This document shows positions 2,622 to 54,884 of a stretch of DNA of 64,000 bases, one piece after another. The stretch comes from Candidatus Saccharimonadales bacterium (lineage in GTDB: Bacteria; Patescibacteriota; Saccharimonadia; Saccharimonadales; JANWIN01), in the NCBI GenBank assembly GCA_025449905.1, contig JANWIN010000008.1, forward strand, positions 4,642 through 68,641. The letters run 5' to 3'. The position numbers were made by a program, and so were the translations under genes. The first letter of the stretch is position 1. Every line of letters begins with the position of its first letter. The notes beneath the pieces were generated by a model. That model was not told where the DNA came from and searched no databases. It saw only the letters and a program-made list of their open reading frames with translations.

Positions 2622-3311
2622 ATGGGAAATAAACTAAGGCCACCCCATAAATCAATTACCACTCGTCTGCTAGCAACTGTTGCTGGCTTGGTTACTGTGG
2701 CGGCTTGCTCAGGAGCCAACAATTCATTTTTGACGATTGAAGAGCGACCCAAATTACGAACCACCACGACAACAACTCCAGAATTTGATGATCATGGCTG
2801 GGGTCACCCCGAAGCACAAAGAAATTTAGATGCGGTTACCACAAATGCACTAGGTAATCGAGCTTTAGTAAGGGTACGGGCAGGTGTATGCATAGAGTAC
2901 AAGACAGAAAATGCTACTGTGGTTGTCCAACATCCAATAGATGTAATTGGACGCCCGGCGTCTAATGTCGAAGCCCAAGTATTGGGTGGTGTTGTGCCTT
3001 CAATGAATCGAGATGTGGACGGCATGCGTAAGCACAGCGATATTGCAATAAGAGAAGTTGATGGCCGACTAGAGTACGGAAAGTTGGGGCATATACCCGG
3101 CGAAGTTCCAAGAGAAGTAATCACCACCCTTGAGCGCAGCGATCTTCAAATGTCTAGAAGCGATGAAGAATACCTAGGTGCTAGTGAATACCCGCTTGGT
3201 GGGGTGGTAAGCCTGGCGCCAACGGTGCCTAATTCTGATATACCACCAGGAAATGTAGTTTACATTAGAGCTCAACCTGAACGCATTAACGATTATTGCT
3301 TAATAGAATAA
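2622..3311 (+). CDS. putative secreted lipoprotein, function unknown
   Basis: N-terminal signal with lipobox LVTVAA|C; no other motif; sits between fusA and tuf. Confidence 0.55.
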   Translation: MGNKLRPPHKSITTRLLATVAGLVTVAACSGANNSFLTIEERPKLRTTTTTTPEFDDHGWGHPEAQRNLDAVTTNALGNRALVRVRAGVCIEYKTENATVVVQHPIDVIGRPASNVEAQVLGGVVPSMNRDVDGMRKHSDIAIREVDGRLEYGKLGHIPGEVPREVITTLERSDLQMSRSDEEYLGASEYPLGGVVSLAPTVPNSDIPPGNVVYIRAQPERINDYCLIE

Positions 3312-10481: not shown

Positions 10482-10684
10482 TTATGAAGATTGTAGAAAT
10501 TCGTAAATTATCTACTGCCCAATTGACTACTGAGAGTACTAATTTACGTGAGGAAATTGCCGAAATGCGTCGCCGCTTACACCTGGGCGAACTGCAAAAT
10601 AACCGCGCCATTCGGGCTAAGCGCAAAGATTTAGCCCGAATGCTTACCGTTTTGAGTGAACAACTGACCAAGGAGACGGCGTAA
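10478..10684 (+). CDS. rpmC: 50S ribosomal protein L29 (uL29)
   Basis: 68-aa helical protein at the canonical position; [12 protein letters not shown] pattern. Confidence 0.9.
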
Positions 10685-11088
10685 TGGCAAAAGTACTTGT
10701 AGGTGTCGTAGCGGCCGATAAAGCTGATAAGACTATTACTGTCAGCGTCAGAACTCGTCGAACACACCCGATTTACCGCAAACAGTACACTGTTTCTAAT
10801 AAGATTTTGGCTCATGACGAAAAGAACGAAGCTAAGCTTGGCGATAAAGTGTCACTTAAAGAAACTCGGCCAATTAGCAAGCGAAAGAGCTTTACTCTGG
10901 AAAAGATTATTGATCGCCCGGCAATTCGCGAGGATCAAAGTGTTAGTGAAGTTACTAAAGCCGATGATGAAGTGGTGGAAAAGCCCAAGGTAGAGAAAGT
11001 TGTAAAAGCCGCGGAGTCAAAAGCCGAAAAAGAGGCCAAGAGGCCTGCTAAAAAAGAGCCAGCCAAAAAGAGCGAGGAAGAAGAATGA
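10684..11088 (+). CDS. rpsQ: 30S ribosomal protein S17 (uS17) with K/E-rich C-terminal tail
   Basis: uS17 core ([16 protein letters not shown]...HPIYRK) plus ~50 aa of K/E/A-rich tail. Confidence 0.92.
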
Positions 11089-13052: not shown

Positions 13053-13595
13053 ATGAGTCGAGTTGGCAAACAACCAATCAAAGTTCCCAGCGGCGTAAAT
13101 GCCGCAATTGATGGCTCTAATGTAACTGTTAGCGGCCCTCAAGGTAATTTGTCACTCAAAACCTTGCCAGGTATGGTTATCAAGCAAGACGGTGATGAGA
13201 TAATTGTAAGCCGTAGCAATGAAGAAACAATGTCCAGAGCCCGTCATGGCCTAACCCGAACGCTTATAGACAATATGGTAGTTGGCGTCAGCCAGGGTTT
13301 TAATAAAAAGTTAGAAGTTAACGGTGTTGGCTTTCGTGTAAATCTAGCTGGACAGGATCTTAAGCTTAGCTTGGGCTATTCCCATGAAATAACTTATAAG
13401 ATACCAGAGACTGTAAAATTAGCTGTTGACCAGAACATCATCACGATTAGCGGCATTGATAAACAGCAGGTTGGCCAAGTGGCAGCTGAAATTCGAGCAC
13501 TTAAAAAACCCGAGCCATATAAGGGCAAAGGTATTAAATATGTTAATGAGCGAATTATTAGAAAAGCCGGCAAAAGCGCTAAGGATAAAGCATAA
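13053..13595 (+). CDS. rplF: 50S ribosomal protein L6 (uL6)
   Basis: MSRVGKQPIKVPSGV... is canonical. Confidence 0.96.
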   Translation: MSRVGKQPIKVPSGVNAAIDGSNVTVSGPQGNLSLKTLPGMVIKQDGDEIIVSRSNEETMSRARHGLTRTLIDNMVVGVSQGFNKKLEVNGVGFRVNLAGQDLKLSLGYSHEITYKIPETVKLAVDQNIITISGIDKQQVGQVAAEIRALKKPEPYKGKGIKYVNERIIRKAGKSAKDKA

Positions 13596-13708
13596 TGAGA
13601 ATTGAAGCTATAAGGGAAAAGAGAGCCCGAGAAAATGTATTTCATTGTTCCCGGCGTGATGAGAAAAACCGTAGGTTTGTCTCATGGAACTCTAAGGATA
13701 AGGCGTAA
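13595..13708 (+). CDS. candidate 37-aa basic micro-protein filling the rplF-rplR gap
   Basis: Hand-translated as MRIEAIREKRARENVFHCSRRDEKNRRFVSWNSKDKA. TAATG overlaps at both ends (rplF stop/ATG 13593-97; stop/rplR ATG 13706-10). Below the ORF-track size cutoff. Confidence 0.3.
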   Translation: MRIEAIREKRARENVFHCSRRDEKNRRFVSWNSKDKA

Positions 13709-14064
13709 TGAATAGACTAGCCGCCACGACCGGTCGAAGACAGGCCCGTAGCCGCCGTACTAGAGCTGTAGTTCGAGGTACTTCCGAACGGCCCCGACTC
13801 AATGTATTTATTAGCCAGCGGCATATCACTGCCCAGATAATTGATGACAGCAAGCATCAAACATTGGCTTATGTCACAACCGTTAGCCAAAAGTCCTTAC
13901 CGACTAACCTTACTGAGCGAGCCAACTGGGCTGGAGATGAAATAGCCAAGCTGGCAAAAACCGCTAAGGTAAAAAAAGTGGTTTTAGATCGCAGCAACCG
14001 CCTGTATCATGGGCGAGTAAAGGCTTTGGCAGAGGCAGCCCGCAAGTCAGGATTGGAGTTTTAA
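13708..14064 (+). CDS. rplR: 50S ribosomal protein L18 (uL18)
   Basis: Arg-rich N-terminus, RPRLNVFISQRHITAQIIDD. Confidence 0.95.
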   Translation: MNRLAATTGRRQARSRRTRAVVRGTSERPRLNVFISQRHITAQIIDDSKHQTLAYVTTVSQKSLPTNLTERANWAGDEIAKLAKTAKVKKVVLDRSNRLYHGRVKALAEAARKSGLEF

Positions 14065-14624
14065 TGGCCAACAATTTTAAAAACCGAGTTGATCGAGCCG
14101 TCAATATAACTGAAGAAAAGCAATTTGATGAGCGCGTTCTTAATATTGACCGTGTAGCTCGCGTGGTTAAAGGCGGCCGCCGTTTCCGTTTTCGTGCTCT
14201 AGTAGTAATGGGCGATAATAAAAGCAGAGTCGGCATTGGTTCGGCCAAAGGCGCAGATGTCACAGGTGCCATTAATAAGGCTACCGAAGTAGCTAAAAAG
14301 AATATGGTCACACTGCAGCTTTATAGAGAAACCCTGCCTCACGAGACCGAGGCGAAGGTTGCCGGCGCTCATATTTTGATAAAGCCAGCTAGCCCAGGTA
14401 CCGGTTTAATTGCCGGTGGCGCGGTCCGTACTATCTTAGAAGTAGCCGGTGTGCGCAATGCATTATCTAAATCGTTAGGCTCTAGCAATAAAACCAATAT
14501 TGCCTACGCTACGGTTAAGGCCCTAACACAACTGGTACCAGCTAATAAGTGGGTAATTCAGCCAAAGTCGAAGAAGACTTCTACGCCTGTCAAAAAAACT
14601 GCAAAAGAGGCGGTTGCCAAATGA
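14064..14624 (+). CDS. rpsE: 30S ribosomal protein S5 (uS5)
   Basis: VARVVKGGRRFRFRALVVMGD motif. Confidence 0.96.
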   Translation: MANNFKNRVDRAVNITEEKQFDERVLNIDRVARVVKGGRRFRFRALVVMGDNKSRVGIGSAKGADVTGAINKATEVAKKNMVTLQLYRETLPHETEAKVAGAHILIKPASPGTGLIAGGAVRTILEVAGVRNALSKSLGSSNKTNIAYATVKALTQLVPANKWVIQPKSKKTSTPVKKTAKEAVAK

Positions 14625-15097
14625 AATACAATACTTTGAAGGTAACTAAAAAAGGTTCGCTCAAAAGAGTTGGGCGCGGTATTGCTGCCGGACAGGGTAA
14701 AACAGCCGGTCGTGGCACCAAAGGCCAAAAATCTCGAGCTGGTGCTACTCGCAAGCTTGGTTTTGAAGGCGGCCAAAATCCGCTAATTCAGCGCTTACCG
14801 AAGCTTAGAGGCTTCAACAGACCCGATAGAAATCAAAGTAATGTTTATACCGACCAACTAGAAAAGATTAAATCTGCAATTGTTGATAATGCCGCTCTTG
14901 TTGAAGCCGGACTGATAGATAACGCCCACACGACAGTAAAACTCATTCAGCGGGGAGAACTTAAAAAGAAGCAAACCGTTAACCTCCAAGCCGCCAGCAA
15001 GGGCGCAATTGCTCAAATTGAAAAGGCCGGCGGTAAATTTACTGCAACGCCGCGAGTTGGACGAACAGCTAAGAAAAGCGCCAAAAAGGACAAATAG
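14621..15097 (+). CDS. rplO: 50S ribosomal protein L15 (uL15)
   Basis: MKYNTLKV...GRGIAAGQGKTAGRGTKGQKSR. ATG 14621 overlaps the rpsE stop (ATGA); the ORF-track start 14549 is rejected. Confidence 0.94.
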   Translation: MKYNTLKVTKKGSLKRVGRGIAAGQGKTAGRGTKGQKSRAGATRKLGFEGGQNPLIQRLPKLRGFNRPDRNQSNVYTDQLEKIKSAIVDNAALVEAGLIDNAHTTVKLIQRGELKKKQTVNLQAASKGAIAQIEKAGGKFTATPRVGRTAKKSAKKDK

Positions 15098-17414: not shown

Positions 17415-17876
17415 ATGGCAGACGATAAATCTACCGCAGTTGAAGATGTAGAAAAGACCGATGCCCCAGCGGATGCTGAGGCTCCGGAAAAAGAAGCTGC
17501 GCCTCGCAAGAAAAAATCCAAGCGCAGTGTGCCGATTGGTCAAGTCCACATTTTAGCTACTTTTAATAATACAATTGTGACTTTTACCGACCAAAAAGGT
17601 GGAGTTTTAACTACCGCTAGCGCTGGTAGCTGCGGCTTTCGCGGTTCTAAAAAAGGCACAGCTTACGCTGCTCAGACAGCCGCTGAAAAGGCCGGCCAAC
17701 TGGCTAAGCAACAACACAGCTTTAGCAAAGCCGATGTTTATGTCAAAGGCATTGGCCTTGGCCGAGAGTCTGCTATTCGCACCTTATCAACTCTAGGGAT
17801 CAATGTAGACACTATTCGCGATGTAACCGGCATTCCGAACGGCGGCGTTAGACCGCGGAAGGCAAGGAGAGTCTAA
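17415..17876 (+). CDS. rpsK: 30S ribosomal protein S11 (uS11) with acidic N-terminal extension
   Basis: Core GQVHILATFNNTIVTFTD..., preceded by ~35 aa rich in A/E/D/K. Confidence 0.94.
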   Translation: MADDKSTAVEDVEKTDAPADAEAPEKEAAPRKKKSKRSVPIGQVHILATFNNTIVTFTDQKGGVLTTASAGSCGFRGSKKGTAYAAQTAAEKAGQLAKQQHSFSKADVYVKGIGLGRESAIRTLSTLGINVDTIRDVTGIPNGGVRPRKARRV

Positions 17877-26268: not shown

Positions 26269-26344
26269 GCCGACGTAGCTCAGTGGCTAGAGCGGCTGTT
26301 TTGTAAACAGCGGGTCGTGGGTTCGAATCCCTCCGTCGGCTCCA
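26269..26344 (+). tRNA. tRNA-Thr (anticodon UGU)
   Basis: Cloverleaf folded by eye; acceptor gccgacg/cgtcggc; anticodon loop TTTGTAA; CCA encoded; one T-stem mismatch. Confidence 0.85.
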
Positions 26345-26348
26345 TATT

Positions 26349-26434
26349 GCAGGGTTAGTGAAGCGGTCAAACACGGCAGACTGTAAATCTGTTGGCATTC
26401 GCCTTCGTAGGTTCGAATCCTACACCCTGCACCA
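26349..26434 (+). tRNA. tRNA-Tyr (anticodon GUA)
   Basis: Acceptor gcagggt/accctgc; anticodon loop CTGTAAA; long variable arm; CCA encoded. Confidence 0.85.
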
Positions 26435-26500
26435 ATTTAGTGGTAAATCGAGCACTTGCAGACTAAGCACTCCGGACTATTGTAATTCCGTAAATTTTTA

Positions 26501-26968
26501 TTATTCCGACTTATTCCTTCGATACCAAGGTTTTTGCGTCAGTGCATAATTTTGAACGCAAGTATCCTCACTACTAGCTATCCACCCGATATGAGAATTC
26601 TCATATAGGAAAAAATATCGCTCCTCTTCGCCCAGTTCATCTACAACTTCTTGTCCGAGGTCTTCGGCAACTCCAAAGAAATCCAGAGTTGTTAAACATA
26701 GCCGTCCACATGTTTTAACAGGACATTGATTTACTTGAACAGGAATTTCACCGTTCCCATTAGAGGACTCTTGGGCTAAATCAGTTTCATTGGAATGTGA
26801 TGCGATGTAATCATCTATCGCAATAGGGAATAAAAAGGAATTGAAAGCATTTCCATCTACATAATTTAGTAATTCAAGTAAACAAGTAGGAGGTCTATCT
26901 GCCTCTAATTGACTTCCTGCTGCATCAGCGAATTTATCATGTAAATCGACAAATTCTTTAAATTCCAT
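26501..26968 (-). CDS. hypothetical protein (155 aa), possibly SMI1/KNR4 (SUKH)-like
   Basis: AT-rich ORF. Weak resemblance only (LLELLNYVDGNAF..., ...FFLYENSHIGWIASS); not verified. Confidence 0.35.
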   Translation of the reverse strand: MEFKEFVDLHDKFADAAGSQLEADRPPTCLLELLNYVDGNAFNSFLFPIAIDDYIASHSNETDLAQESSNGNGEIPVQVNQCPVKTCGRLCLTTLDFFGVAEDLGQEVVDELGEEERYFFLYENSHIGWIASSEDTCVQNYALTQKPWYRRNKSE

Positions 26969-27099
26969 ACCACATTAATAACATTAAGGTGACGATTAGT
27001 CAATAATATCACCTGCACTTCAGATGTATCGAAAAGTGTTTTCAGTTTAACGGACGTAGCTAAAAGATTCCTACGACACCAATCACGCTAAACCAAAAA

Positions 27100-27128
27100 T
27101 TGACACAGTAGTAATCCAGTATTATAAT
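27100..27128 (+). promoter_or_regulatory. consensus sigma70 promoter
   Basis: TTGACA (27100-05), 17-nt spacer, TATAAT (27123-28). The ATG of the next gene is 9 nt after the -10 box, with no SD. Confidence 0.6.
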
Positions 27129-27137
27129 AGGTTTATT

Positions 27138-27548
27138 ATGGCAAACGAAACTTTATCGCCAATGACTGACGAAGTAGCGCATTTGCGTCAGCAGCTTGCT
27201 GATACTCTAACTCATTTAGAAGAGCATCCAGAAGATGATAGTTCACTTTCTTTGTCACTATATGACTTAAGGAAAGAGGTTAGACACTATGATGCGGTTG
27301 TAAGCGGAGAAATAAGCTCCTTTCAAGTAGACTCACTTGCTGATATCCCTAAAGTACTAGTAGACGTGCGCCGGGCACGACACATGAGCCGAGTAGAGTT
27401 ATCGCAAGCGTGGGGTCTCTCAGAAGAGAATCGTCAGAGGCTTCTTGCTGATGAAGAGAACTTTTATGCCGGAATGTCTTTAGCGGGAGTTGTTTCTGCC
27501 GCAATAATTCTAGGCGCTGAGCTTAAAGGCGATATAAAGGTAGAGTAG
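27138..27548 (+). CDS. XRE-type helix-turn-helix protein (136 aa)
   Basis: C-terminal half RRARHMSRVELSQAWGLSEENRQRLLADEEN fits an HTH_XRE pattern. Confidence 0.5.
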   Translation: MANETLSPMTDEVAHLRQQLADTLTHLEEHPEDDSSLSLSLYDLRKEVRHYDAVVSGEISSFQVDSLADIPKVLVDVRRARHMSRVELSQAWGLSEENRQRLLADEENFYAGMSLAGVVSAAIILGAELKGDIKVE

Positions 27549-27630
27549 CTAAGTAGAAAAGTTTCAACTTGTTAGATAACGCTGCACCAAAATTTACCGA
27601 CTTGATCTAAAGTGCTATAGTTAAAAATAG

Positions 27631-27960
27631 ATGGGGGAAACAAAAACTGGCTCAACTGCTTACTTAGCGTACGAAAGAGGTCCATTTACGGTTCGTGTTA
27701 ATGCAGACTCCTGGCGAGCTGAAGAGGATGCCTATCTTTATCTACGTGGACATAATTTTTTTGGTGAAACTTTTCGTAGGCAATATGAAGCTACACTCCC
27801 ATTAGTTATAATTAGACCCCTCACTACTGAGGAGGTGCATATTAGTGGTAATGGCCAAGAGACAAAACTCATTTCTCACCTATTAAACCGAACGCCTGAA
27901 AGGCTAACAGATGCTACGCCAACTCAAGCTGTTCATCTTGGGCAGCTTAGCCTTATTTAA
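27631..27960 (+). CDS. hypothetical protein (109 aa)
   Basis: ORF track only; follows the HTH gene. Confidence 0.4.
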   Translation: MGETKTGSTAYLAYERGPFTVRVNADSWRAEEDAYLYLRGHNFFGETFRRQYEATLPLVIIRPLTTEEVHISGNGQETKLISHLLNRTPERLTDATPTQAVHLGQLSLI

Positions 27961-27977
27961 AGTTAAAAATTATCTCT

Positions 27978-27986
27978 TGATATAAT
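27978..27986 (+). promoter_or_regulatory. extended -10 promoter for tRNA-Thr(GGU)
   Basis: TGaTATAAT, 9 nt upstream of the tRNA 5' end. Confidence 0.45.
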
Positions 27987-27995
27987 TTCATAGGT

Positions 27996-28070
27996 GCCGT
28001 CGTAGCTCAGTGGTAGAGCACCTCCATGGTAAGGAGGGGGTCACGAGTTCAACTCTCGTCGACGGCTCCA
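27996..28070 (+). tRNA. tRNA-Thr (anticodon GGU)
   Basis: Acceptor gccgtcg/cgacggc; anticodon loop ATGGTAA; CCA encoded. Confidence 0.88.
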
Positions 28071-28118
28071 CACTTACTTATTGCATAAACAGCTCACCTC
28101 TGTTAAACTTACAATCTA

Positions 28119-28322
28119 ATGAAATACCTGCAAAAGTCTAATAAGAATAAGAAATGGGCTGGTGTTTGCGGCGGCTTTGCTGAGTATTTTGAAATAGATC
28201 CTACACTAGTCAGAGCCATTTATATCTTTATAACCATAGTTACCGGTATAATTCCCGGTTTGCTGGCATACTTTGTGCTTGCTTGGATAATGCCATCTCA
28301 GGGACAAGCTAAAAATGGCTAA
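28119..28322 (+). CDS. PspC-domain small membrane protein
   Basis: KWAGVCGGFAEYFEIDPTLVRAIYIF... is a typical PspC domain; overlaps the rpmG start by 8 nt. Confidence 0.8.
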   Translation: MKYLQKSNKNKKWAGVCGGFAEYFEIDPTLVRAIYIFITIVTGIIPGLLAYFVLAWIMPSQGQAKNG

Positions 28323-28515
28323 GACAAGCAAGCGTAAAATTGTGGGATTGGTAAGTGAAGCTAGCGGCCACCGCAGTTATTACACGACTAAAAACCCGCA
28401 AAATGTCACTGAGAAACTCAAGCTGCGGAAGTATGACCCAATTGTTAGGAAACATGTGTTCTATGTTGAGACCAAGAAAAACTTAGGCCGCAACGAAGTA
28501 AAACCAAAGAAATAA
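28315..28515 (+). CDS. rpmG: 50S ribosomal protein L33 (bL33), Cys-free form
   Basis: ...SYYTTKNPQNVTEKLKLRKYDPIVRKHVFYVETK; the CxxC pairs are replaced. Confidence 0.88.
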   Translation: MAKTSKRKIVGLVSEASGHRSYYTTKNPQNVTEKLKLRKYDPIVRKHVFYVETKKNLGRNEVKPKK

Positions 28516-28545
28516 GCTTAAACATACTGTAATATAGGTTGTGTT

Positions 28546-28622
28546 AGGGGTGTAGCTCAGTTGGCTAGAGCGACGGTCTCCAAAACCGTAGGTCGGGGGT
28601 TCAAGTCCCTCCACCCCTGCCA
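28546..28622 (+). tRNA. tRNA-Trp (anticodon CCA)
   Basis: Acceptor aggggtg/cacccct; anticodon loop CTCCAAA; CCA encoded. Confidence 0.88.
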
Positions 28623-28740: not shown

Positions 28741-29406
28741 ATGGCTAAGATAAACCTCACAAAACCAATTATTATATTACCGTATGGTTATCCAGGGGCT
28801 GGCAAAACTTATTTTTCGAGCCAGTTAGGCGACTATATCAATATTGCCCATTTAAGTAGTGACCGCTTGCGCCATGAAATAAACGAAAAACCAACTTATA
28901 GCCGGCAGGAAGATGAACTGGTTGAGAGGTTAATGCAGTATTTGGCGGAAGAGTTCCTGCGGGCAGGCACCAGTGTGGCTTATGATGCCAATCTTTCGCG
29001 GCTGGGTACGCGGCGACAATTGCAAGCTATTGCCCGACAGTATCACGCCGTTCCGTTGACTATTTGGTTTCAGATTGATATTGAGGCTGCCTTTTATAGG
29101 ATCGCCAAGCGGGACAGACGTAAAATTGAGGATAAGTACGCTACGCCTTATGACCGCTCAACCTTTGATGATTACTCTAAAACTATGCAAACTCCCCGGA
29201 ACGAGGATTACATAGTACTGAGCGGCAAACACACCTTTAATACTCAAAAGAGTGCATTAGTTAATAAGCTCTATGCCATGGGTCTAATTAGTGGTGATAG
29301 TGCCTCATCACAAGTTATTAAGCCCGGAATGGTAAATCTAGTAGCTTCGCAGCAGCTAAGGGCGGGCCGAGTGGATACATCGCGCCGCAATATAGTTATA
29401 CGCTGA
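28741..29406 (+). CDS. P-loop kinase (AAA_33 / polynucleotide-kinase-like)
   Basis: Walker A YGYPGAGKTY; about 220 aa; family assignment by eye. Confidence 0.6.
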   Translation: MAKINLTKPIIILPYGYPGAGKTYFSSQLGDYINIAHLSSDRLRHEINEKPTYSRQEDELVERLMQYLAEEFLRAGTSVAYDANLSRLGTRRQLQAIARQYHAVPLTIWFQIDIEAAFYRIAKRDRRKIEDKYATPYDRSTFDDYSKTMQTPRNEDYIVLSGKHTFNTQKSALVNKLYAMGLISGDSASSQVIKPGMVNLVASQQLRAGRVDTSRRNIVIR

Positions 29407-30098
29407 TGGCCTTTAAAGAATTTGATTTACAAGGCGTGGGTAAAGTTAAGATTTATAAACGGCGCGGTACCAGGGGGCTGCGTTTAAGTTTGCACCCAGA
29501 GAATTACGTAAGAGTTACAATGCCAACTTGGCTACCATATAAGACTGGCCTGGATTTTGCGCGTTCCAGGAGGACCTGGATTAACCAACACCGCCAGCCC
29601 CTACGCCTACTGCGGCAAAATATGAAAATTGGCAAGCAGTATCAGCTGAAGTTTATCGCTAGCAATATAAAGCAGCCTCGAACAGCTATAGCAGCGTCCA
29701 GAATTATGGTTCAGTATCCGTCAATTAGTTCCATCTACAGCGCTGATGTTCAAAATATGGCCAGAAAAGCCTCGCTAAGAGCCTTAAAGAAAGAAGCGCC
29801 GCAACTACTAAGTCTGCGGCTAGAACAGCTAGCAAAACAACATAGATTTAAATATAAAATTGTTAAATTTCGTTATCTTAAATCGCGCTGGGGCAGCTGT
29901 ACGTCTAAAAAAGAGATAACCCTAAACATCATGCTGCTGAATTTGCCCTGGCAACTTATTGATCATGTAATACTCCACGAGCTTTTGCACACTAAAGTCT
30001 TAAAACATGGGCCAAAGTTTTGGAAAGAATTTGAAAAAATTGAACCCGAAGCAAAGTCTCTTCAAAAAAAACTCCGCCATCATCAACCAGCATTCTAG
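29406..30098 (+). CDS. YgjP-like (DUF45/M48-type) zinc metallohydrolase
   Basis: HELLHTKVLKHGPKFW zincin motif near the C-terminus; TGATG overlap with the kinase gene. Confidence 0.75.
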   Translation: MAFKEFDLQGVGKVKIYKRRGTRGLRLSLHPENYVRVTMPTWLPYKTGLDFARSRRTWINQHRQPLRLLRQNMKIGKQYQLKFIASNIKQPRTAIAASRIMVQYPSISSIYSADVQNMARKASLRALKKEAPQLLSLRLEQLAKQHRFKYKIVKFRYLKSRWGSCTSKKEITLNIMLLNLPWQLIDHVILHELLHTKVLKHGPKFWKEFEKIEPEAKSLQKKLRHHQPAF

Positions 30099-30121
30099 AT
30101 TAAGCAAGTTTATGTAATAAT

Positions 30122-30212
30122 GCGGCTTTGCCTTATAAGACAAAACTACGTTTTTTCTCACCAAAGCCGGAAAAATGAAATACATTTTAGTCGGGCTGCT
30201 CTTTTTCCTTAA
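30122..30212 (-). repeat. ~91-bp hairpin-bearing repeat element, copy A
   Basis: About 80 of 91 positions match the reverse complement of 45064-45154 by eye. Internal helix GGCTTTG...CAAAGCC. Flanked by the 12-bp direct repeat TTATGTAATAAT (30110-21, 30224-35). Confidence 0.75.
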
Positions 30213-30242
30213 GCTGCTTCAAATTATGTAATAATAAGGCAT

Positions 30243-31349
30243 ATGCTTAGACAGACTCTTAGTGGAAGCCGCCCGGCAATCGTGGAGCGCGAGCGACTCA
30301 CTAGTCTTATTAACAGCATGGCTGACGGAGTGATTGCGACTGACGACAAGGTTAACATCTTACTTTATAACGGCGCTGCGCTAAATATTCTAGACTCAAA
30401 TAGCATGATAGGCGGCAAATCATTGTCAAGTATATTGCAGCTAAAAGACAAGAATGACCGACCGGTAGATGTTCAAAAGTTAGTTCTGGGCGCCAAAACA
30501 CCAATTGTATCGCGCGAAATGCGTATACATTACGGTGATAGCAGTACTATAAATCTGTATATTAGCATCGCGCCGGTAAAGTTTGGCTTTGGCCATATGG
30601 GCAATGCTGGGTATGTAATTGTGCTGCGTGATATTACTCGTGAAAAATCTCTGGAAGAAGAACGTGATGAATTCATAAGCGTAGTTAGCCATGAGCTTCG
30701 CACTCCAATTACTATAGCTGAAGGTAATATAAGTAACGCTAAACTTATGGCTCAGCAAGGAACGGACCTGACTAAAATTGAGGAGGCGCTGGAGCATGCC
30801 CATAACCAAGTAGAGTTTTTGGCCGGTTTAATAAATGATTTGGCCACTTTGTCTCGTGCTGAACGCGGCAAACTAACAGTCGATATAGAGACTATAAACG
30901 TCCATGACCTAGTTAACGAACTGGCCGAAAATTACTTACCAGAAGTTCGCGGTAAAGGTCTAGAGCTTAAAATTTTCCTGGACCCAACACTGCAGGCTAT
31001 TAATTCGAGCAAGCTCTACGTACGCGAAATTTTGCAAAACTTTATAACTAACTCCATCAAGTATACTGATCACGGCTCGATAACCATTAGTGCCCAGCGC
31101 CGGGAAGGCGGAGTTCTATTTGAAGTTAGTGATACGGGTATTGGCATTAGCAAGCAGGATCAAGGCAAGATTTTTGAAAAATTCTTTAGGTCTGAAGATT
31201 ACCGTACTAAGAAAACTAGTGGCACTGGGCTTGGACTTTATGTAACTAAAAAATTACTTTCTTTACTGCACGCTCAAATGAGTTTTGAGAGTGAGCTTAA
31301 TAAGGGCACGACCTTTAAGGTTTTTATACCAAGCTTAAAATTAATGTAA
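30243..31349 (+). CDS. cytoplasmic PAS-domain sensor histidine kinase (orphan)
   Basis: H-box SHELRTPIT; N, G1 (DTGIGI) and G2 (GTGLGL) boxes; no TM segment; no adjacent response regulator. Confidence 0.88.
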   Translation: MLRQTLSGSRPAIVERERLTSLINSMADGVIATDDKVNILLYNGAALNILDSNSMIGGKSLSSILQLKDKNDRPVDVQKLVLGAKTPIVSREMRIHYGDSSTINLYISIAPVKFGFGHMGNAGYVIVLRDITREKSLEEERDEFISVVSHELRTPITIAEGNISNAKLMAQQGTDLTKIEEALEHAHNQVEFLAGLINDLATLSRAERGKLTVDIETINVHDLVNELAENYLPEVRGKGLELKIFLDPTLQAINSSKLYVREILQNFITNSIKYTDHGSITISAQRREGGVLFEVSDTGIGISKQDQGKIFEKFFRSEDYRTKKTSGTGLGLYVTKKLLSLLHAQMSFESELNKGTTFKVFIPSLKLM

Positions 31350-43695: not shown

Positions 43696-45051
43696 ATGGA
43701 CAGCGACGACGCCAAGTTACCACCACAAAACACCGACGCCGAAGCCAGTTTATTGGGAGCTTTACTAATTGACAGTGACGCTATAGTTAAAATAGCCGAT
43801 GCTATTACCGTAAAAGATTTTTACGATGAAAAGCACCAGCGAATTTATGAGGCCGTAAACACTCTTTATGAAAAGCATAGTCCAGTTGATGTATTAACCC
43901 TATCTAACCATTTAAAAGACAGCGGCAATTTGGATTTTGTCGGTGGTTCGGCTTATTTAACAGAACTGACTAACTATGTACCGACAGCTGCTCATGTTGA
44001 GCGTTATGCTGACATTGTTGCTCAAAAAGCCTTAAGACGCCGATTAATCGCTGCTTCCCAGGATATAACTAATTTAAGTTACGACGAAGGCAGAAACTTA
44101 GATGAGCTAATCGAAAATGCCGAAAGCCGTTTATTTGAAATCAGCCAAAAGCATGTTGGCCAAGATGTCACTAGTCTAGAGACCGTCCTGAGCGAAAGTT
44201 TTGACCGACTTGACGAACTTCATAAAGACAAAGGTAAAATCCGAGGTATTCCAACAGGCTATAAAGATTTGGATAACGTTCTGGCCGGTTTGCAGCGTTC
44301 TGACTTGGTTGTTTTAGCAGCTCGACCATCAATGGGTAAAACCGCCTTAGCTCTTAATATTGCCCATAACGTCGCGCTGGGAGCAGACCAGCCGGTGCTA
44401 ATTTTTAGCCTGGAGATGAGCAAGGAACAGCTGGTTGACCGCATGCTAGCTATGGAGTCTGGAGTTGATGCTTGGGCGCTCCGCACCGGAAATCTAACCG
44501 ATGCTGACTTTGAAAAAATTAGCCAAGCCATGGGCGCCTTAGGTGAAGCAAAAATATACATTGATGATACGCCAAGTATTACTGTTAGTGAGCTACGGAC
44601 TAAAGCTCGCCGCGAGGCTCATATCCGCGAACTTGGTTTGATAGTGGTTGATTATCTGCAGCTCATGAGTGGTGGCCGTTATGGCGGCGACGGTAACCGC
44701 GTACAGGAAATATCTGAGATCTCGCGCGGCCTGAAAGGTATAGCCCGCGAGCTAAATGTGCCGGTGCTGGCACTAAGTCAACTTAGTCGTTCGGTTGAAA
44801 ACCGTCCAGATCGAATCCCACAATTAGCCGACCTACGTGAATCTGGCTCAATCGAGCAAGATGCCGACGTGGTAGCATTTATCTATAGAGACGACTACTA
44901 TAAGCCGGACACTGACCGTAAAAATGTCGCCGATATCCTAATAAAGAAACAGCGTAACGGTCCAACTGGTGCAGTCGAGCTTTACTTTGACAAAGAGAAG
45001 CAACGCTTTAGGAGCTTAGAAACCAAGCAAGCTTCGCCATTCCCAGAGTAG
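43696..45051 (+). CDS. dnaB: replicative DNA helicase DnaB
   Basis: AARPSMGKTALALN Walker A, VVDYLQLM, SQLSR, ESGSIEQDADVV. Confidence 0.95.
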   Translation: MDSDDAKLPPQNTDAEASLLGALLIDSDAIVKIADAITVKDFYDEKHQRIYEAVNTLYEKHSPVDVLTLSNHLKDSGNLDFVGGSAYLTELTNYVPTAAHVERYADIVAQKALRRRLIAASQDITNLSYDEGRNLDELIENAESRLFEISQKHVGQDVTSLETVLSESFDRLDELHKDKGKIRGIPTGYKDLDNVLAGLQRSDLVVLAARPSMGKTALALNIAHNVALGADQPVLIFSLEMSKEQLVDRMLAMESGVDAWALRTGNLTDADFEKISQAMGALGEAKIYIDDTPSITVSELRTKARREAHIRELGLIVVDYLQLMSGGRYGGDGNRVQEISEISRGLKGIARELNVPVLALSQLSRSVENRPDRIPQLADLRESGSIEQDADVVAFIYRDDYYKPDTDRKNVADILIKKQRNGPTGAVELYFDKEKQRFRSLETKQASPFPE

Positions 45052-45063
45052 ACATCTTACCCG

Positions 45064-45154
45064 TTAAGGAAAAAGAGCAGCCCAAGACAAATGTATTCCA
45101 TTTTGCAGGCTTTGGTGAGAAAAACGTAGTTTTGTCTTATAAGGCGAAGCCGGC
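45064..45154 (+). repeat. ~91-bp hairpin-bearing repeat element, copy B
   Basis: Reverse-complement match to 30122-30212; internal helix GGCTTTG...CGAAGCC (one G-U). Confidence 0.75.
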
Positions 45155-45179: not shown

Positions 45180-46370
45180 ATGGTTAAAGAAATACGTTTG
45201 AAGCTTGGTGGTTCTTGGCAACCAATTATAGGTTATTTTGCTGGTATTGCTGCAGTTATGAGTTTGCTAATTTTCAAGCTTGGGTCAATTGTCCCTGGCC
45301 TAAGCCCTTACGAAGCATCTTCACTGGCTAACACCTCGGATGTTCACCATATTCTTAATAATCCGGTTAACGCCCCTTTTAATCTTATGCAGTGGCTTTT
45401 GCATTACTTTAGCTGGACCACCCCCGCACAGGTTCGTGGTGTGAGTGTATTCTTTGCTTTTATCGCCGCCGGGCTATTCTATTATGTATTAAAAAATTGG
45501 CACACTTGGCGAATCGCAGTACTAGGCACTGCCTTGTTCGCTAGTTCAGCCTGGTTTTTTCATATTGCCCGCCAGAGTACGCCAGATGTCTTGTTGATAT
45601 TCGCCATCATTGCAGTTCTAGCTTATGGCACTTGGCTAAAGCTGACTAAGCGTGTCAGCTGGGCTTTGTTTGTTGGCGCATTATTGCTTAGCATTCTTGT
45701 TTACGTCCCGGGAGTTATCTGGATCTTGGCTGCTGGTTTAGTTTGGCAACGAAAATTGTTGCTTGCCCTTTTTAAACGAGCTAATTGGTTGAGTAAAATC
45801 TTATCAATTTTTATATGTTTTTTAGCCTTATCAGCCCTAGGCTGGGCAATATTTAGGCAACCCTCGGTTGCCCGGTCAATAGCAGGCCTACCCCTAAACG
45901 GCATTTTTAGCCCCAGAGATAGCCTTGTGAATCTGGCTAAAATTCCAGTTCGGATTTTCTACCGTGGACCTAGCGATCCAACGTTTTGGCTCGGGACTTT
46001 GCCGCTGCTAGGAATTTTTGCTACGGTCACCAGCATCATTGGCGCCTATGCCTATTGGCTGGGGCGTAAACTCGACAGGACCAAAGTCTTAATTGGGCTT
46101 TTTATAATGACCACGGTTTTATCAGCACTTAGCGGCCTGATTAGCCTGGCTCTACTTTTACCGTTGATGTATTTACTAGTAATAAGAGGGGTTACGCTAC
46201 TACTGCAACAATGGCTAACTGTCTTTCCCAGGAACCCATTGGCCCGTGGGGTAGGCCGCGGCTTAATCACCGTGGTTATTATTCTGGCGACATTCTATAA
46301 CATTAATCATTATTTTGTGGCTTGGCCAAACGCACCAGAGACTAAAGCCGCCTTTACCATTCAACAATAA
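45180..46370 (+). CDS. polytopic integral membrane protein (possibly GT-C/ArnT-like)
   Basis: About 10 hydrophobic segments; family guess only. Confidence 0.5.
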   Translation: MVKEIRLKLGGSWQPIIGYFAGIAAVMSLLIFKLGSIVPGLSPYEASSLANTSDVHHILNNPVNAPFNLMQWLLHYFSWTTPAQVRGVSVFFAFIAAGLFYYVLKNWHTWRIAVLGTALFASSAWFFHIARQSTPDVLLIFAIIAVLAYGTWLKLTKRVSWALFVGALLLSILVYVPGVIWILAAGLVWQRKLLLALFKRANWLSKILSIFICFLALSALGWAIFRQPSVARSIAGLPLNGIFSPRDSLVNLAKIPVRIFYRGPSDPTFWLGTLPLLGIFATVTSIIGAYAYWLGRKLDRTKVLIGLFIMTTVLSALSGLISLALLLPLMYLLVIRGVTLLLQQWLTVFPRNPLARGVGRGLITVVIILATFYNINHYFVAWPNAPETKAAFTIQQ

Positions 46371-54810: not shown

Positions 54811-54884
54811 TGGCTTCGGGACTAGGATTCGAACCTAGATTGCCGGGACCAAAACCCGGTGTCCTACCATTAGACGATCCCGAA
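54811..54884 (-). tRNA. tRNA-Gln (anticodon UUG)
   Basis: The reverse complement folds as a cloverleaf: acceptor ttcggga/tcccgaa (U1-A72), anticodon loop TTTTGGT, CCA encoded. Confidence 0.8.

Follow-up and report, generated by a model that had tools for sequence, protein, structure and literature searches.

Why does a tightly packed ribosomal-protein operon hold a wide gap between two of its genes, and what is the tiny open reading frame (ORF) that fills the gap to the base? The question is raised by the junction between rplF (L6) and rplR (L18) in a 64,000-nucleotide (nt) stretch of a Candidatus Saccharimonadales genome (contig JANWIN010000008.1), the whole of which we call the window and whose numbering we use throughout. 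The S10/spc ribosomal-protein cluster in the window is that of Saccharibacteria (TM7, candidate phyla radiation, CPR), and its L6 protein finds its best match among GTDB species representatives, at 70% identity, in L6 of an uncultured Candidatus Saccharimonas sp. An earlier note on this DNA had singled out the small ORF as ribosomal-protein-like. We propose that it is instead a translated relay that carries ribosomes across an inserted RNA element, with a peptide that is incidental, and we put the probability of this reading at about 0.68.

The micro-ORF at the rplF–rplR junction

The micro-ORF lies on the plus strand at 13595–13708 and comprises 37 codons, whose translation, MRIEAIREKRARENVFHCSRRDEKNRRFVSWNSKDKA, includes eight arginine and four lysine residues. 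Its first codon is a duplicate of the rplR start codon and its last a duplicate of the rplF stop codon, with the element in between. Upstream, its ATG (13595–13597) shares one A with the TAA stop (13593–13595) of rplF (13053–13595, plus strand), giving the overlap TAATG at 13593–13597. Downstream, its TAA stop (13706–13708) shares one A with the ATG (13708–13710) of rplR (13708–14064, plus strand), giving a second TAATG at 13706–13710. Both flanking genes are in the ORF list, and rplR is further identified by tblastn matches to L18 of relatives. The gap of 112 nt is exceptional, with the remaining junctions from rpsS to secY ranging from a 4-nt overlap to a 10-nt gap. The extent of the ORF, its 12 basic residues, the two TAATG overlaps and the singularity of the gap are thus all as the earlier note had given them. 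In addition, a Shine-Dalgarno sequence, AAGGA, precedes the micro-ORF ATG by 9 nt, the same spacing as is found ahead of the rplR ATG. The micro-ORF therefore bears the signature of a coupling ORF, with stop/start overlaps at both ends and a Shine-Dalgarno sequence before its start.

A target-duplicating insertion

The spacer is flanked by a 20-nt direct repeat (family D1) with copies 113 nt apart and 90% identical, each containing AAGGA, TAA and ATG. The upstream copy, CTAAGGATAAAGCATAATGA (13579–13598, plus strand), holds the Shine-Dalgarno sequence of the micro-ORF together with the rplF stop and a now orphaned duplicate of the rplR ATG, while the downstream copy, CTAAGGATAAGGCGTAATGA (13692–13711, plus strand), holds the working Shine-Dalgarno sequence and start codon of rplR. 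Between them lie the 93 nt of the inserted segment (13599–13691, plus strand). Deleting one repeat copy together with these 93 nt restores an ordinary rplF–TAATG–rplR junction, which shows that the junction before the insertion was an overlapping TAATG and that the insertion doubled 20 nt of it. The presence of TAATG at both ends of the micro-ORF follows from this duplication.

The earlier note had proposed comparing the spacer across related genomes, and the comparison finds it missing. In about 28 Saccharibacteria relatives the rplF–rplR gap is only −1 to 10 nt and the spacer is absent. Exact-sequence look-ups with L6, L18 and the micro-ORF of the window matched no recorded contig. Among 80 spc-operon loci, the element described below has no copy at the rplF–rplR junction, and only one locus (L012) carries a copy at all, at another junction. 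Given the 20-nt flanking repeat and the relatives that lack the gap, the spacer is evidently a lineage-specific insertion that duplicated its target. No terminal inverted repeats flank the insert at this locus, where no search aimed at a cognate transposase was made. A 13-nt repeat (family D5) had hinted that the spacer might be a decayed duplicate of the rplF 3′ end, an explanation that we dropped when the core of the spacer matched an independent element family.

The only other large rplF–rplR gap among the relatives is found in the second-closest of them (L002), where the same junction holds a strongly palindromic 96-nt insert with ACAGT/AGCTGT repeats (3040–3144 of that locus). This insert is unrelated to the spacer in the window. 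It, too, is bridged, by a 34-codon ORF that runs from TAATG to 7 nt within rplR.

A covarying two-hairpin element

Within the inserted segment, positions 13610–13686 (plus strand) match a family of elements of about 78 nt that share a common plan: a purine tail AGGGAAAAGAGCAG, a variable hairpin (P1), a single nucleotide and a conserved hairpin (P2) with the consensus AUGAGA-A-AAACC-GUA-GGUUU-G-UCUCAU. In this copy, which we call copy A, the tail AGGGAAAAGAG occupies 13613–13623, P1 13625–13657 and P2 13659–13685. A covariance model of the element, R1, which was built from 25 metagenome copies with the window sequence excluded, matches copy A over its full length (model positions 1–78) with a cmsearch score of 75.7 bits and an E value of 4e-19. 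Copies of the element are 77–80 nt long, with no restriction to multiples of 3.

The metagenome copies, more than 120 in all and on Saccharibacteria-like contigs, were gathered with a 20-base pattern from the shared hairpin, which matched at least 120 contigs, and R1 run on the first 100 of the pattern-matched loci gave 120 matches. When the 117 distinct matches are aligned, the fraction of pair cells that are paired is 96.4%, compared with 78.5% in shuffles, and double-sided changes occur at 21 of 23 base pairs. Compensatory cells number 384 against 96 in shuffles, with none of 500 shuffles attaining the observed values, and controls in which the register was slid are just 27–60% paired. The compensatory changes are plainly visible in ungapped raw sequences as well. 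At one P2 pair, 16 variants are G-U and none is non-standard, which indicates that it is the sense strand that folds. The simplest reading is that the folded form is RNA. The evidence for structure is that of covariation only, since single-sequence folding of the spacer is not significant (z = −0.19 and −0.97).

Rfam 15, which covers ribosomal leaders, ribozymes and introns, gave no match on the spacer at E values up to 10, nor on canonical copies at the gathering score or E values up to 5, and our literature searches found no description of the motif. The family is apparently undescribed, as far as these libraries and searches show. One pattern match came from viral contigs and is probably due to chance.

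A permuted architecture occurs in 12 GC-richer contigs (L091, L129, L134, L138, L146, L147, L151, L167, L181, L183, L188 and L192), in which a long GC-rich hairpin is followed by a purine tail that abuts an extended P2, usually 55–80 nt downstream of a same-strand ORF. This arrangement shows the tail and P2 to be the core of the element.

How the insertion would be bridged

The sequence shows that a DNA segment of about 93 nt carrying the structured element was inserted into the rplF/rplR junction, 20 nt of which is now present twice. On the left, the repeat provides a Shine-Dalgarno sequence, the rplF stop and a decoy rplR ATG, and on the right a stop codon that overlaps the true rplR ATG. 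With the repeats spaced by 113 nt (2 mod 3) and the frame through the element open, the decoy ATG opens a 37-codon ORF that ends on the rplR start. We suggest that ribosomes finishing rplF could reinitiate on the micro-ORF, unwind the element as they translate, terminate at TAATG and reinitiate on rplR. Such a relay ORF would re-establish the translational coupling of L6 and L18 that the insertion had broken, and insertions without such bridging would presumably be lost. Translation of the micro-ORF is plausible, given its own Shine-Dalgarno sequence, its stop/start coupling at both ends, the recurrence of ORFs of this kind and their enrichment in operons.

Bridging ORFs recur across the family

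The chance that a single insertion yields an in-frame open bridge is about 5% (1/3 for the frame times 0.15 for 31 open codons), so the argument rests on recurrence and not on this locus alone. We defined a bridging ORF as one that spans the element and starts at an ATG no more than 30 nt upstream. By this definition, bridging ORFs accompany 8 of 20 copies that lie between close co-directional ORFs and 5 of 70 copies elsewhere (Fisher p = 0.001), the latter made up of 3 of 37 copies that precede an RNA gene and 2 of the remaining 33. Of the ORFs at the eight bridged operon copies, six terminate precisely at the start codon of the next gene, and five begin at the stop codon of the preceding one.

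The fetched DNA places micro-ORFs at the L5|S14, S12|S7, L29|S17 and rpoB|rpoC junctions, each over a full-length R1 match and each abutting or overlapping both flanking genes (0–4 nt, with one 2-nt gap before S7). At one rpoB|rpoC junction (L208, 1501–1695), two tandem elements lie under one 64-codon ORF that overlaps each gene by one base. Further bridged contexts are L3|L4 and L23|L2, where L3 and L23 are named by operon order alone. An ORF of 45–46 codons also fills the L22|S3 junction in two loci, with one-base overlaps at both ends (L206, 752–889; L207, 2–142). It has no R1 match and may be either a different insert or a genuine small gene.

The geometry of the insertions recurs as well. 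In all six insertions with repeats of at least 20 nt, the spacing of the repeats is 2 mod 3 (chance p = 0.0014), which puts the decoy ATG and the stop codon overlapping the true start into one reading frame. In two of the six (L115 and L155), the element is inserted antisense to the affected gene and the junction is bridged all the same: the orphan ATG copy plus 12–14 codons opens an ORF through the antisense element, with a different peptide (..YETNLRFFSSRR..), and this decoy ORF stops at ATGA on the true start. If the relay reading is correct, essential operons with tight coupling can absorb insertions in a minimal genome as long as the duplication gives rise to a decoy ORF that terminates at the true start codon, and repeat spacing of 2 mod 3 gives a simple rule by which this can be tested.

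At the protein level, a profile of seven bridging peptides, searched at E values up to 1, returned 455 called proteins, and 112 of the best 120 are 33–43 amino acids (aa) long. The residues at their C-termini, such as KEAK or KEIK, are the in-frame translation of the downstream Shine-Dalgarno sequence AAGGAG. The expectation that standard annotation would miss the ORF in the window did not hold, as an identical peptide is already in the public protein collection (P0004, NCBI source) beside these 455 similar ORFs of about 33–43 aa. The hundreds of CPR "hypothetical proteins" of this size are probably relay ORFs on an RNA element and should not be counted as new ribosomal proteins. Neither the element family nor the relay-ORF rule has been described, as far as the tools and libraries that we used show.

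Is the open frame a matter of luck?

The rival that survives best holds that the ORF is incidental, untranslated or irrelevant, that the spacer is simply non-coding and that its open frame is luck. Duplication of TAATG by itself leaves an ATG at the left end of the spacer and a TAA at its right end, a single insertion has the chance of about 5% calculated above, and 12 of the 20 operon copies have no bridging ATG-ORF. Luck sits poorly with the enrichment of bridging ORFs in operons and with the uniform spacing of the six strong-repeat insertions. It would also have to explain why the antisense cases and the unrelated insert in L002 are bridged and why the decoy ATG in the window keeps an intact Shine-Dalgarno sequence at the distance seen for rplR. 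On balance, we consider an incidental ORF rather unlikely.

Several points nonetheless weigh against a relay ORF. Translation of the micro-ORF is itself something that we infer from signals in the sequence. The unbridged majority of operon copies means that bridging is not obligatory, and no close relative shares this same insertion. In addition, one edge of the repeat falls exactly at a start codon in six of six strong cases, for which selection alone offers no explanation. The sample of metagenome copies was seeded by an exact P2 pattern and the covariation alignment was fitted to R1, with phylogenetic relatedness uncorrected in both. Finally, the peptides form a well-conserved family of uniform length, and they may have a function of their own in addition to the constraint on the RNA.

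Is the peptide conserved for its own sake?

This last point leads to the reading closest to that of the earlier note, in which the micro-ORF would encode a functional small basic protein, ribosome-associated or RNA-binding, and the conservation of its nucleotides would reflect protein coding. The uniform length of the 455 similar called ORFs and their conserved core (REKSSQS...LRDEKNRRFVS) speak for such a protein, as do the location of all examined copies in highly expressed, coupled operons and the Shine-Dalgarno sequence that the micro-ORF has of its own.

The composition of the peptide has another source. In the frame of the micro-ORF, the purine tail reads AGG GAA AAG (REK, with REK(S/R)... 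in the family) and P2 reads GAT GAG AAA AAC CGT AGG TTT GTC TCA (DEKNRRFVS), so the basic character arises from a purine-rich tail and P2 being read in one frame. The nucleotides of the element are equally conserved where no ORF is possible, upstream of tRNA, 5S, 23S and transfer-messenger RNA (tmRNA) genes and within 23S loops, and the length of the element varies irrespective of frame. Amino-acid changes are forced by compensatory base-pair changes: N-to-K and R-to-S always occur together, and the two are a C-G to A-U swap of one P2 pair. P2 variants with one extra base (NRQVCLI...) shift the frame and alter the peptide, and the ORF remains open to the same end point. At the rplF–rplR junction the ORF is missing in the roughly 28 relatives, quite different peptides bridge the antisense insertions, and the peptide family has no match in Pfam, NCBIfam or the Protein Data Bank (PDB) at E values up to 10.

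These observations make a functional small protein improbable and suggest that the frame has been selected and the peptide has not, the peptide being most likely a by-product. The coupling that the earlier note had seen stands, and a Shine-Dalgarno sequence and recurrence in operons add to it. A ribosomal-protein-like gene is not supported. Absence of the spacer from relatives and conservation of RNA structure are, moreover, outcomes of the kind that the earlier note had itself set against its reading.

The earlier note had itself named an S8/L18-type regulatory RNA as an alternative, and conserved RNA structure is indeed what the spacer contains, directly upstream of rplR and with further copies within 23S rRNA insertions; an operon-specific autoregulatory leader that mimics an rRNA-binding site to control rplR and the genes downstream is nevertheless very improbable, since the same element stands ahead of many unrelated genes (tRNAs, 5S, 23S, tmRNA, GroEL, SSB and the rpoB|rpoC junction among them), is absent at rplF–rplR in all relatives and matches no ribosomal leader in Rfam.

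Genomic distribution of the element

Across the metagenome contigs, 27 copies lie 2–10 nt upstream of tRNA genes, which represent at least 12 isotypes, on the same strand as the tRNA in 27 cases against one on the opposite strand. The element is also found 3–15 nt upstream of 5S rRNA, 4–12 nt upstream of the 23S 5′ end and upstream of tmRNA. Downstream protein genes, which were assigned by eye with ten confirmed by Pfam, mostly serve translation or are chaperones (S10, L4, L2, S17, S18, L11, L18, EF-Ts, GroEL, DnaJ, HrcA, SSB and an aminoacyl-tRNA synthetase). The element is thus abundant, strongly covarying, not in Rfam and linked to nearly all classes of translation-apparatus genes.

Copies of the element also lie at the 3′ side of short insertions within 23S genes (L100, 3701–3790; L164, L085, L130, L119 and L176), and the copy in L130 is in antisense orientation. 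The insertions occur at three sites: the hairpin loop at Rfam LSU model positions 575–600, probably helix 25 as we take it, and near L100 positions 1992/2003 and 2448/2457, with the antisense copy at one of the latter two. This agrees with PMC11270868, in which 64 of the 66 insertions reported for rRNA genes of Saccharibacteria are short and contain neither an intron nor an endonuclease gene, and the element gives a concrete identity to short non-intron insertions in the rRNA genes of this group.

Up to four copies occur within 10 kb elsewhere, and three in the 64-kb window, where R1 matches only copies A, B and C, with A the best. The five tRNA genes of the window (26269–28622 and 54811–54884) have no copy upstream. 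Given these tRNA genes and the single copy-bearing locus among the 80 spc loci, the element is, to judge from its distribution, accessory and not universal. Flanking direct repeats of 12–43 nt accompany about 10% of copies, with shuffled controls scoring at most 9. In the one spc locus that carries a copy (L012, 3398–4003, a Patescibacteria bin), the element at rpsE|rplO has been absorbed as a C-terminal extension of S5 (...APHDEKETK), an in-frame capture.

Copy B (30134–30212, minus strand; blastn, and 62.9 bits with cmsearch) is antisense to both of its neighbors, a DUF45-like ORF (29406–30098) and a PAS/histidine sensor kinase gene (30243–31349). An exact 12-nt direct repeat, ATTATTACATAA, lies on either side of it at 30224–30235 and 30110–30121, and no bridging ORF extends to the kinase start. 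Copy C (45064–45141, plus strand; 49 bits with cmsearch) lies between dnaB (43696–45051) and a membrane-protein gene (45180–46370), likewise without a bridging ORF. One A is deleted from its P2, which breaks the rule relating tail and P2 lengths that we describe below. Copies B and C are each followed by a mini-hairpin, GGCGAAGCC, which many metagenome copies also carry.

What the element itself may be

In 87 of about 91 copies, the length of the A-run in the tail matches the A-U pairs of P2 in number: tail run and pair number are 4 and 5 in 71 copies, 5 and 6 in another 15, which come from four sequence contexts, and 2 and 3 in two (Fisher p = 6e-14, with phylogenetic relatedness uncorrected). 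Tail position 7 (G or A) also tracks P2 pair 61–67 (C-G or A-U), with counts of 92/3/3/12, and in one variant the tail GGGGAGAG accompanies the P2 strand GAGAGGGG. The tail thus reads as a mirror image of the P2 purine strand. Given the match of A-run to A-U pairs and the covariation at position 7, docking of the tail along P2 is probable and may take the form of a triple helix. A strand-swap helix, in which the tail would pair with the 3′ strand of P2, explains the covariation in run length but not that between position 7 and pair 61–67 or the mirror-image variant in L172, and an intramolecular purine-motif triple helix would fit better.

As for a role, the element combines two sets of traits. 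Like a functional RNA, it has kept its base pairs over the long term while copies in the same genome diverged, is strictly oriented and lies at a fixed nearness to the 5′ ends of stable RNAs. Like an inserting element, it shows target duplications, presence/absence differences between relatives, tandem copies, insertion into rRNA loops (once antisense) and the S5 capture in L012. Tentatively, and with neither preferred, it may be a cis-acting RNA module for the stability or processing of the downstream RNA or a tolerated selfish insertion without a host role. A polymerase-directed leader of the put/nut kind is unlikely, and so, to the same degree, is some other function. More broadly, the element could be a new class of structured RNA in which a tail is docked on a hairpin, possibly as a triplex, and which serves Saccharibacteria as a shared cis-acting module in 23S insertions and at the start of transcripts for tRNA, rRNA, tmRNA, ribosomal proteins, RNA polymerase and chaperones, with a role in stability, processing or elongation control; it would spread by target-duplicating insertion, and the hundreds of micro-ORFs would be its dedicated relay in coupled operons. 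Taken as a whole, we regard this picture as doubtful.

Two further identities were considered and rejected. A sigma-70 promoter is contradicted by the closing pairs of P2, which covary through the T of the would-be −10 box. The place of the element 5′ of mature RNA ends suggested a self-cleaving ribozyme or processing site, which fits poorly with selection for a read-through ORF and has no support in Rfam. The spacer contains no sigma-70-like or terminator-like site, and no −10 box stands at a fixed distance upstream of element copies.

Comparison with known systems

Termination–reinitiation at overlapping stop and start codons (TAATG, ATGA) couples the genes of ribosomal-protein operons. As at other operon junctions, the start of the micro-ORF overlaps the stop of the gene before it, its stop overlaps the start of the gene after it, and a Shine-Dalgarno sequence precedes each ATG. 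It differs from an ordinary coupled cistron in that its product has no evident function, it is present only at a junction split by an insertion and its sequence is set by a nucleic-acid element.

The boxA-boxB sites of lambda nut and of rrn operons and the put sites of HK022 are cis-acting leader RNAs that act on the transcription complex, and put consists of two hairpins one nucleotide apart. The element resembles them in having a conserved single-stranded block followed by hairpins, which as in put are two with a single nucleotide between them, in its orientation specificity and in its position at the heads of stable-RNA and ribosomal-protein units and within long operons. The sense strand of the element has no sequence similarity to these sites. 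Transfer RNA genes, moreover, hardly require antitermination. The reverse complement of the family tail (model positions 8–17) is UGCUCUUU, a boxA-like stretch that lies only on the strand antisense to the downstream genes and that we take to match the core of the rrn/lambda boxA consensus, probably by coincidence. In copy A, this stretch (13617–13625) lacks one C and reads GCUCUCUUUUCCCU.

RNA triple helices are known from stabilizing elements such as the ENE with its poly(A) tract and the MALAT1 3′ end. The match of A-run and P2 together with the position-7 covariation suggests a similar docking of the tail along P2. The geometry would differ in being of the purine-motif type, with the tail antiparallel to the purine strand and on the 5′ side, where the known elements use a U.A-U clamp on a 3′ A-tract.

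The element also has much in common with the Rickettsia palindromic elements (RPEs) and with prokaryotic miniature transposable elements (MITEs) such as Correia and ERIC (reviewed in PMC10969869). These, too, are short structured repeats of about 100–150 bp in reduced genomes, with many copies per genome, presence/absence differences between relatives, target duplications at their flanks and co-transcription with host genes, and they are compatible with translation, as is the L012 copy that is read as an extension of rpsE in the manner of an RPE. Unlike them, the element has no terminal inverted repeats that we found, and its duplications are long and variable (12–43 nt) with one edge at the start codon, whereas those of classical MITEs are fixed. 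Its copies have diverged within a genome with their pairs kept by compensation, without the look of a recent burst, and it has the 27-to-1 orientation bias upstream of tRNA genes. Its usual outcome is a separate relay ORF and not an in-frame fusion.

The intervening sequences (IVSs) of 23S rRNA and the rRNA insertions of Saccharibacteria (PMC11270868) are comparable in that copies of the element occupy short 23S insertions. Classical IVSs differ in not also being dispersed in operons and tRNA leaders, and the Saccharibacteria report describes no shared motif.

Other features of the ribosomal-protein cluster

Three further features of the cluster were observed in the window. S17 (10684–11088) has a long C-terminal tail rich in lysine and glutamate, and S11 (17415–17876) has an acidic N-terminal extension. 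The rpmD gene (L30), whose loss has been described for CPR bacteria, is not present between rpsE and rplO (14064–15097).

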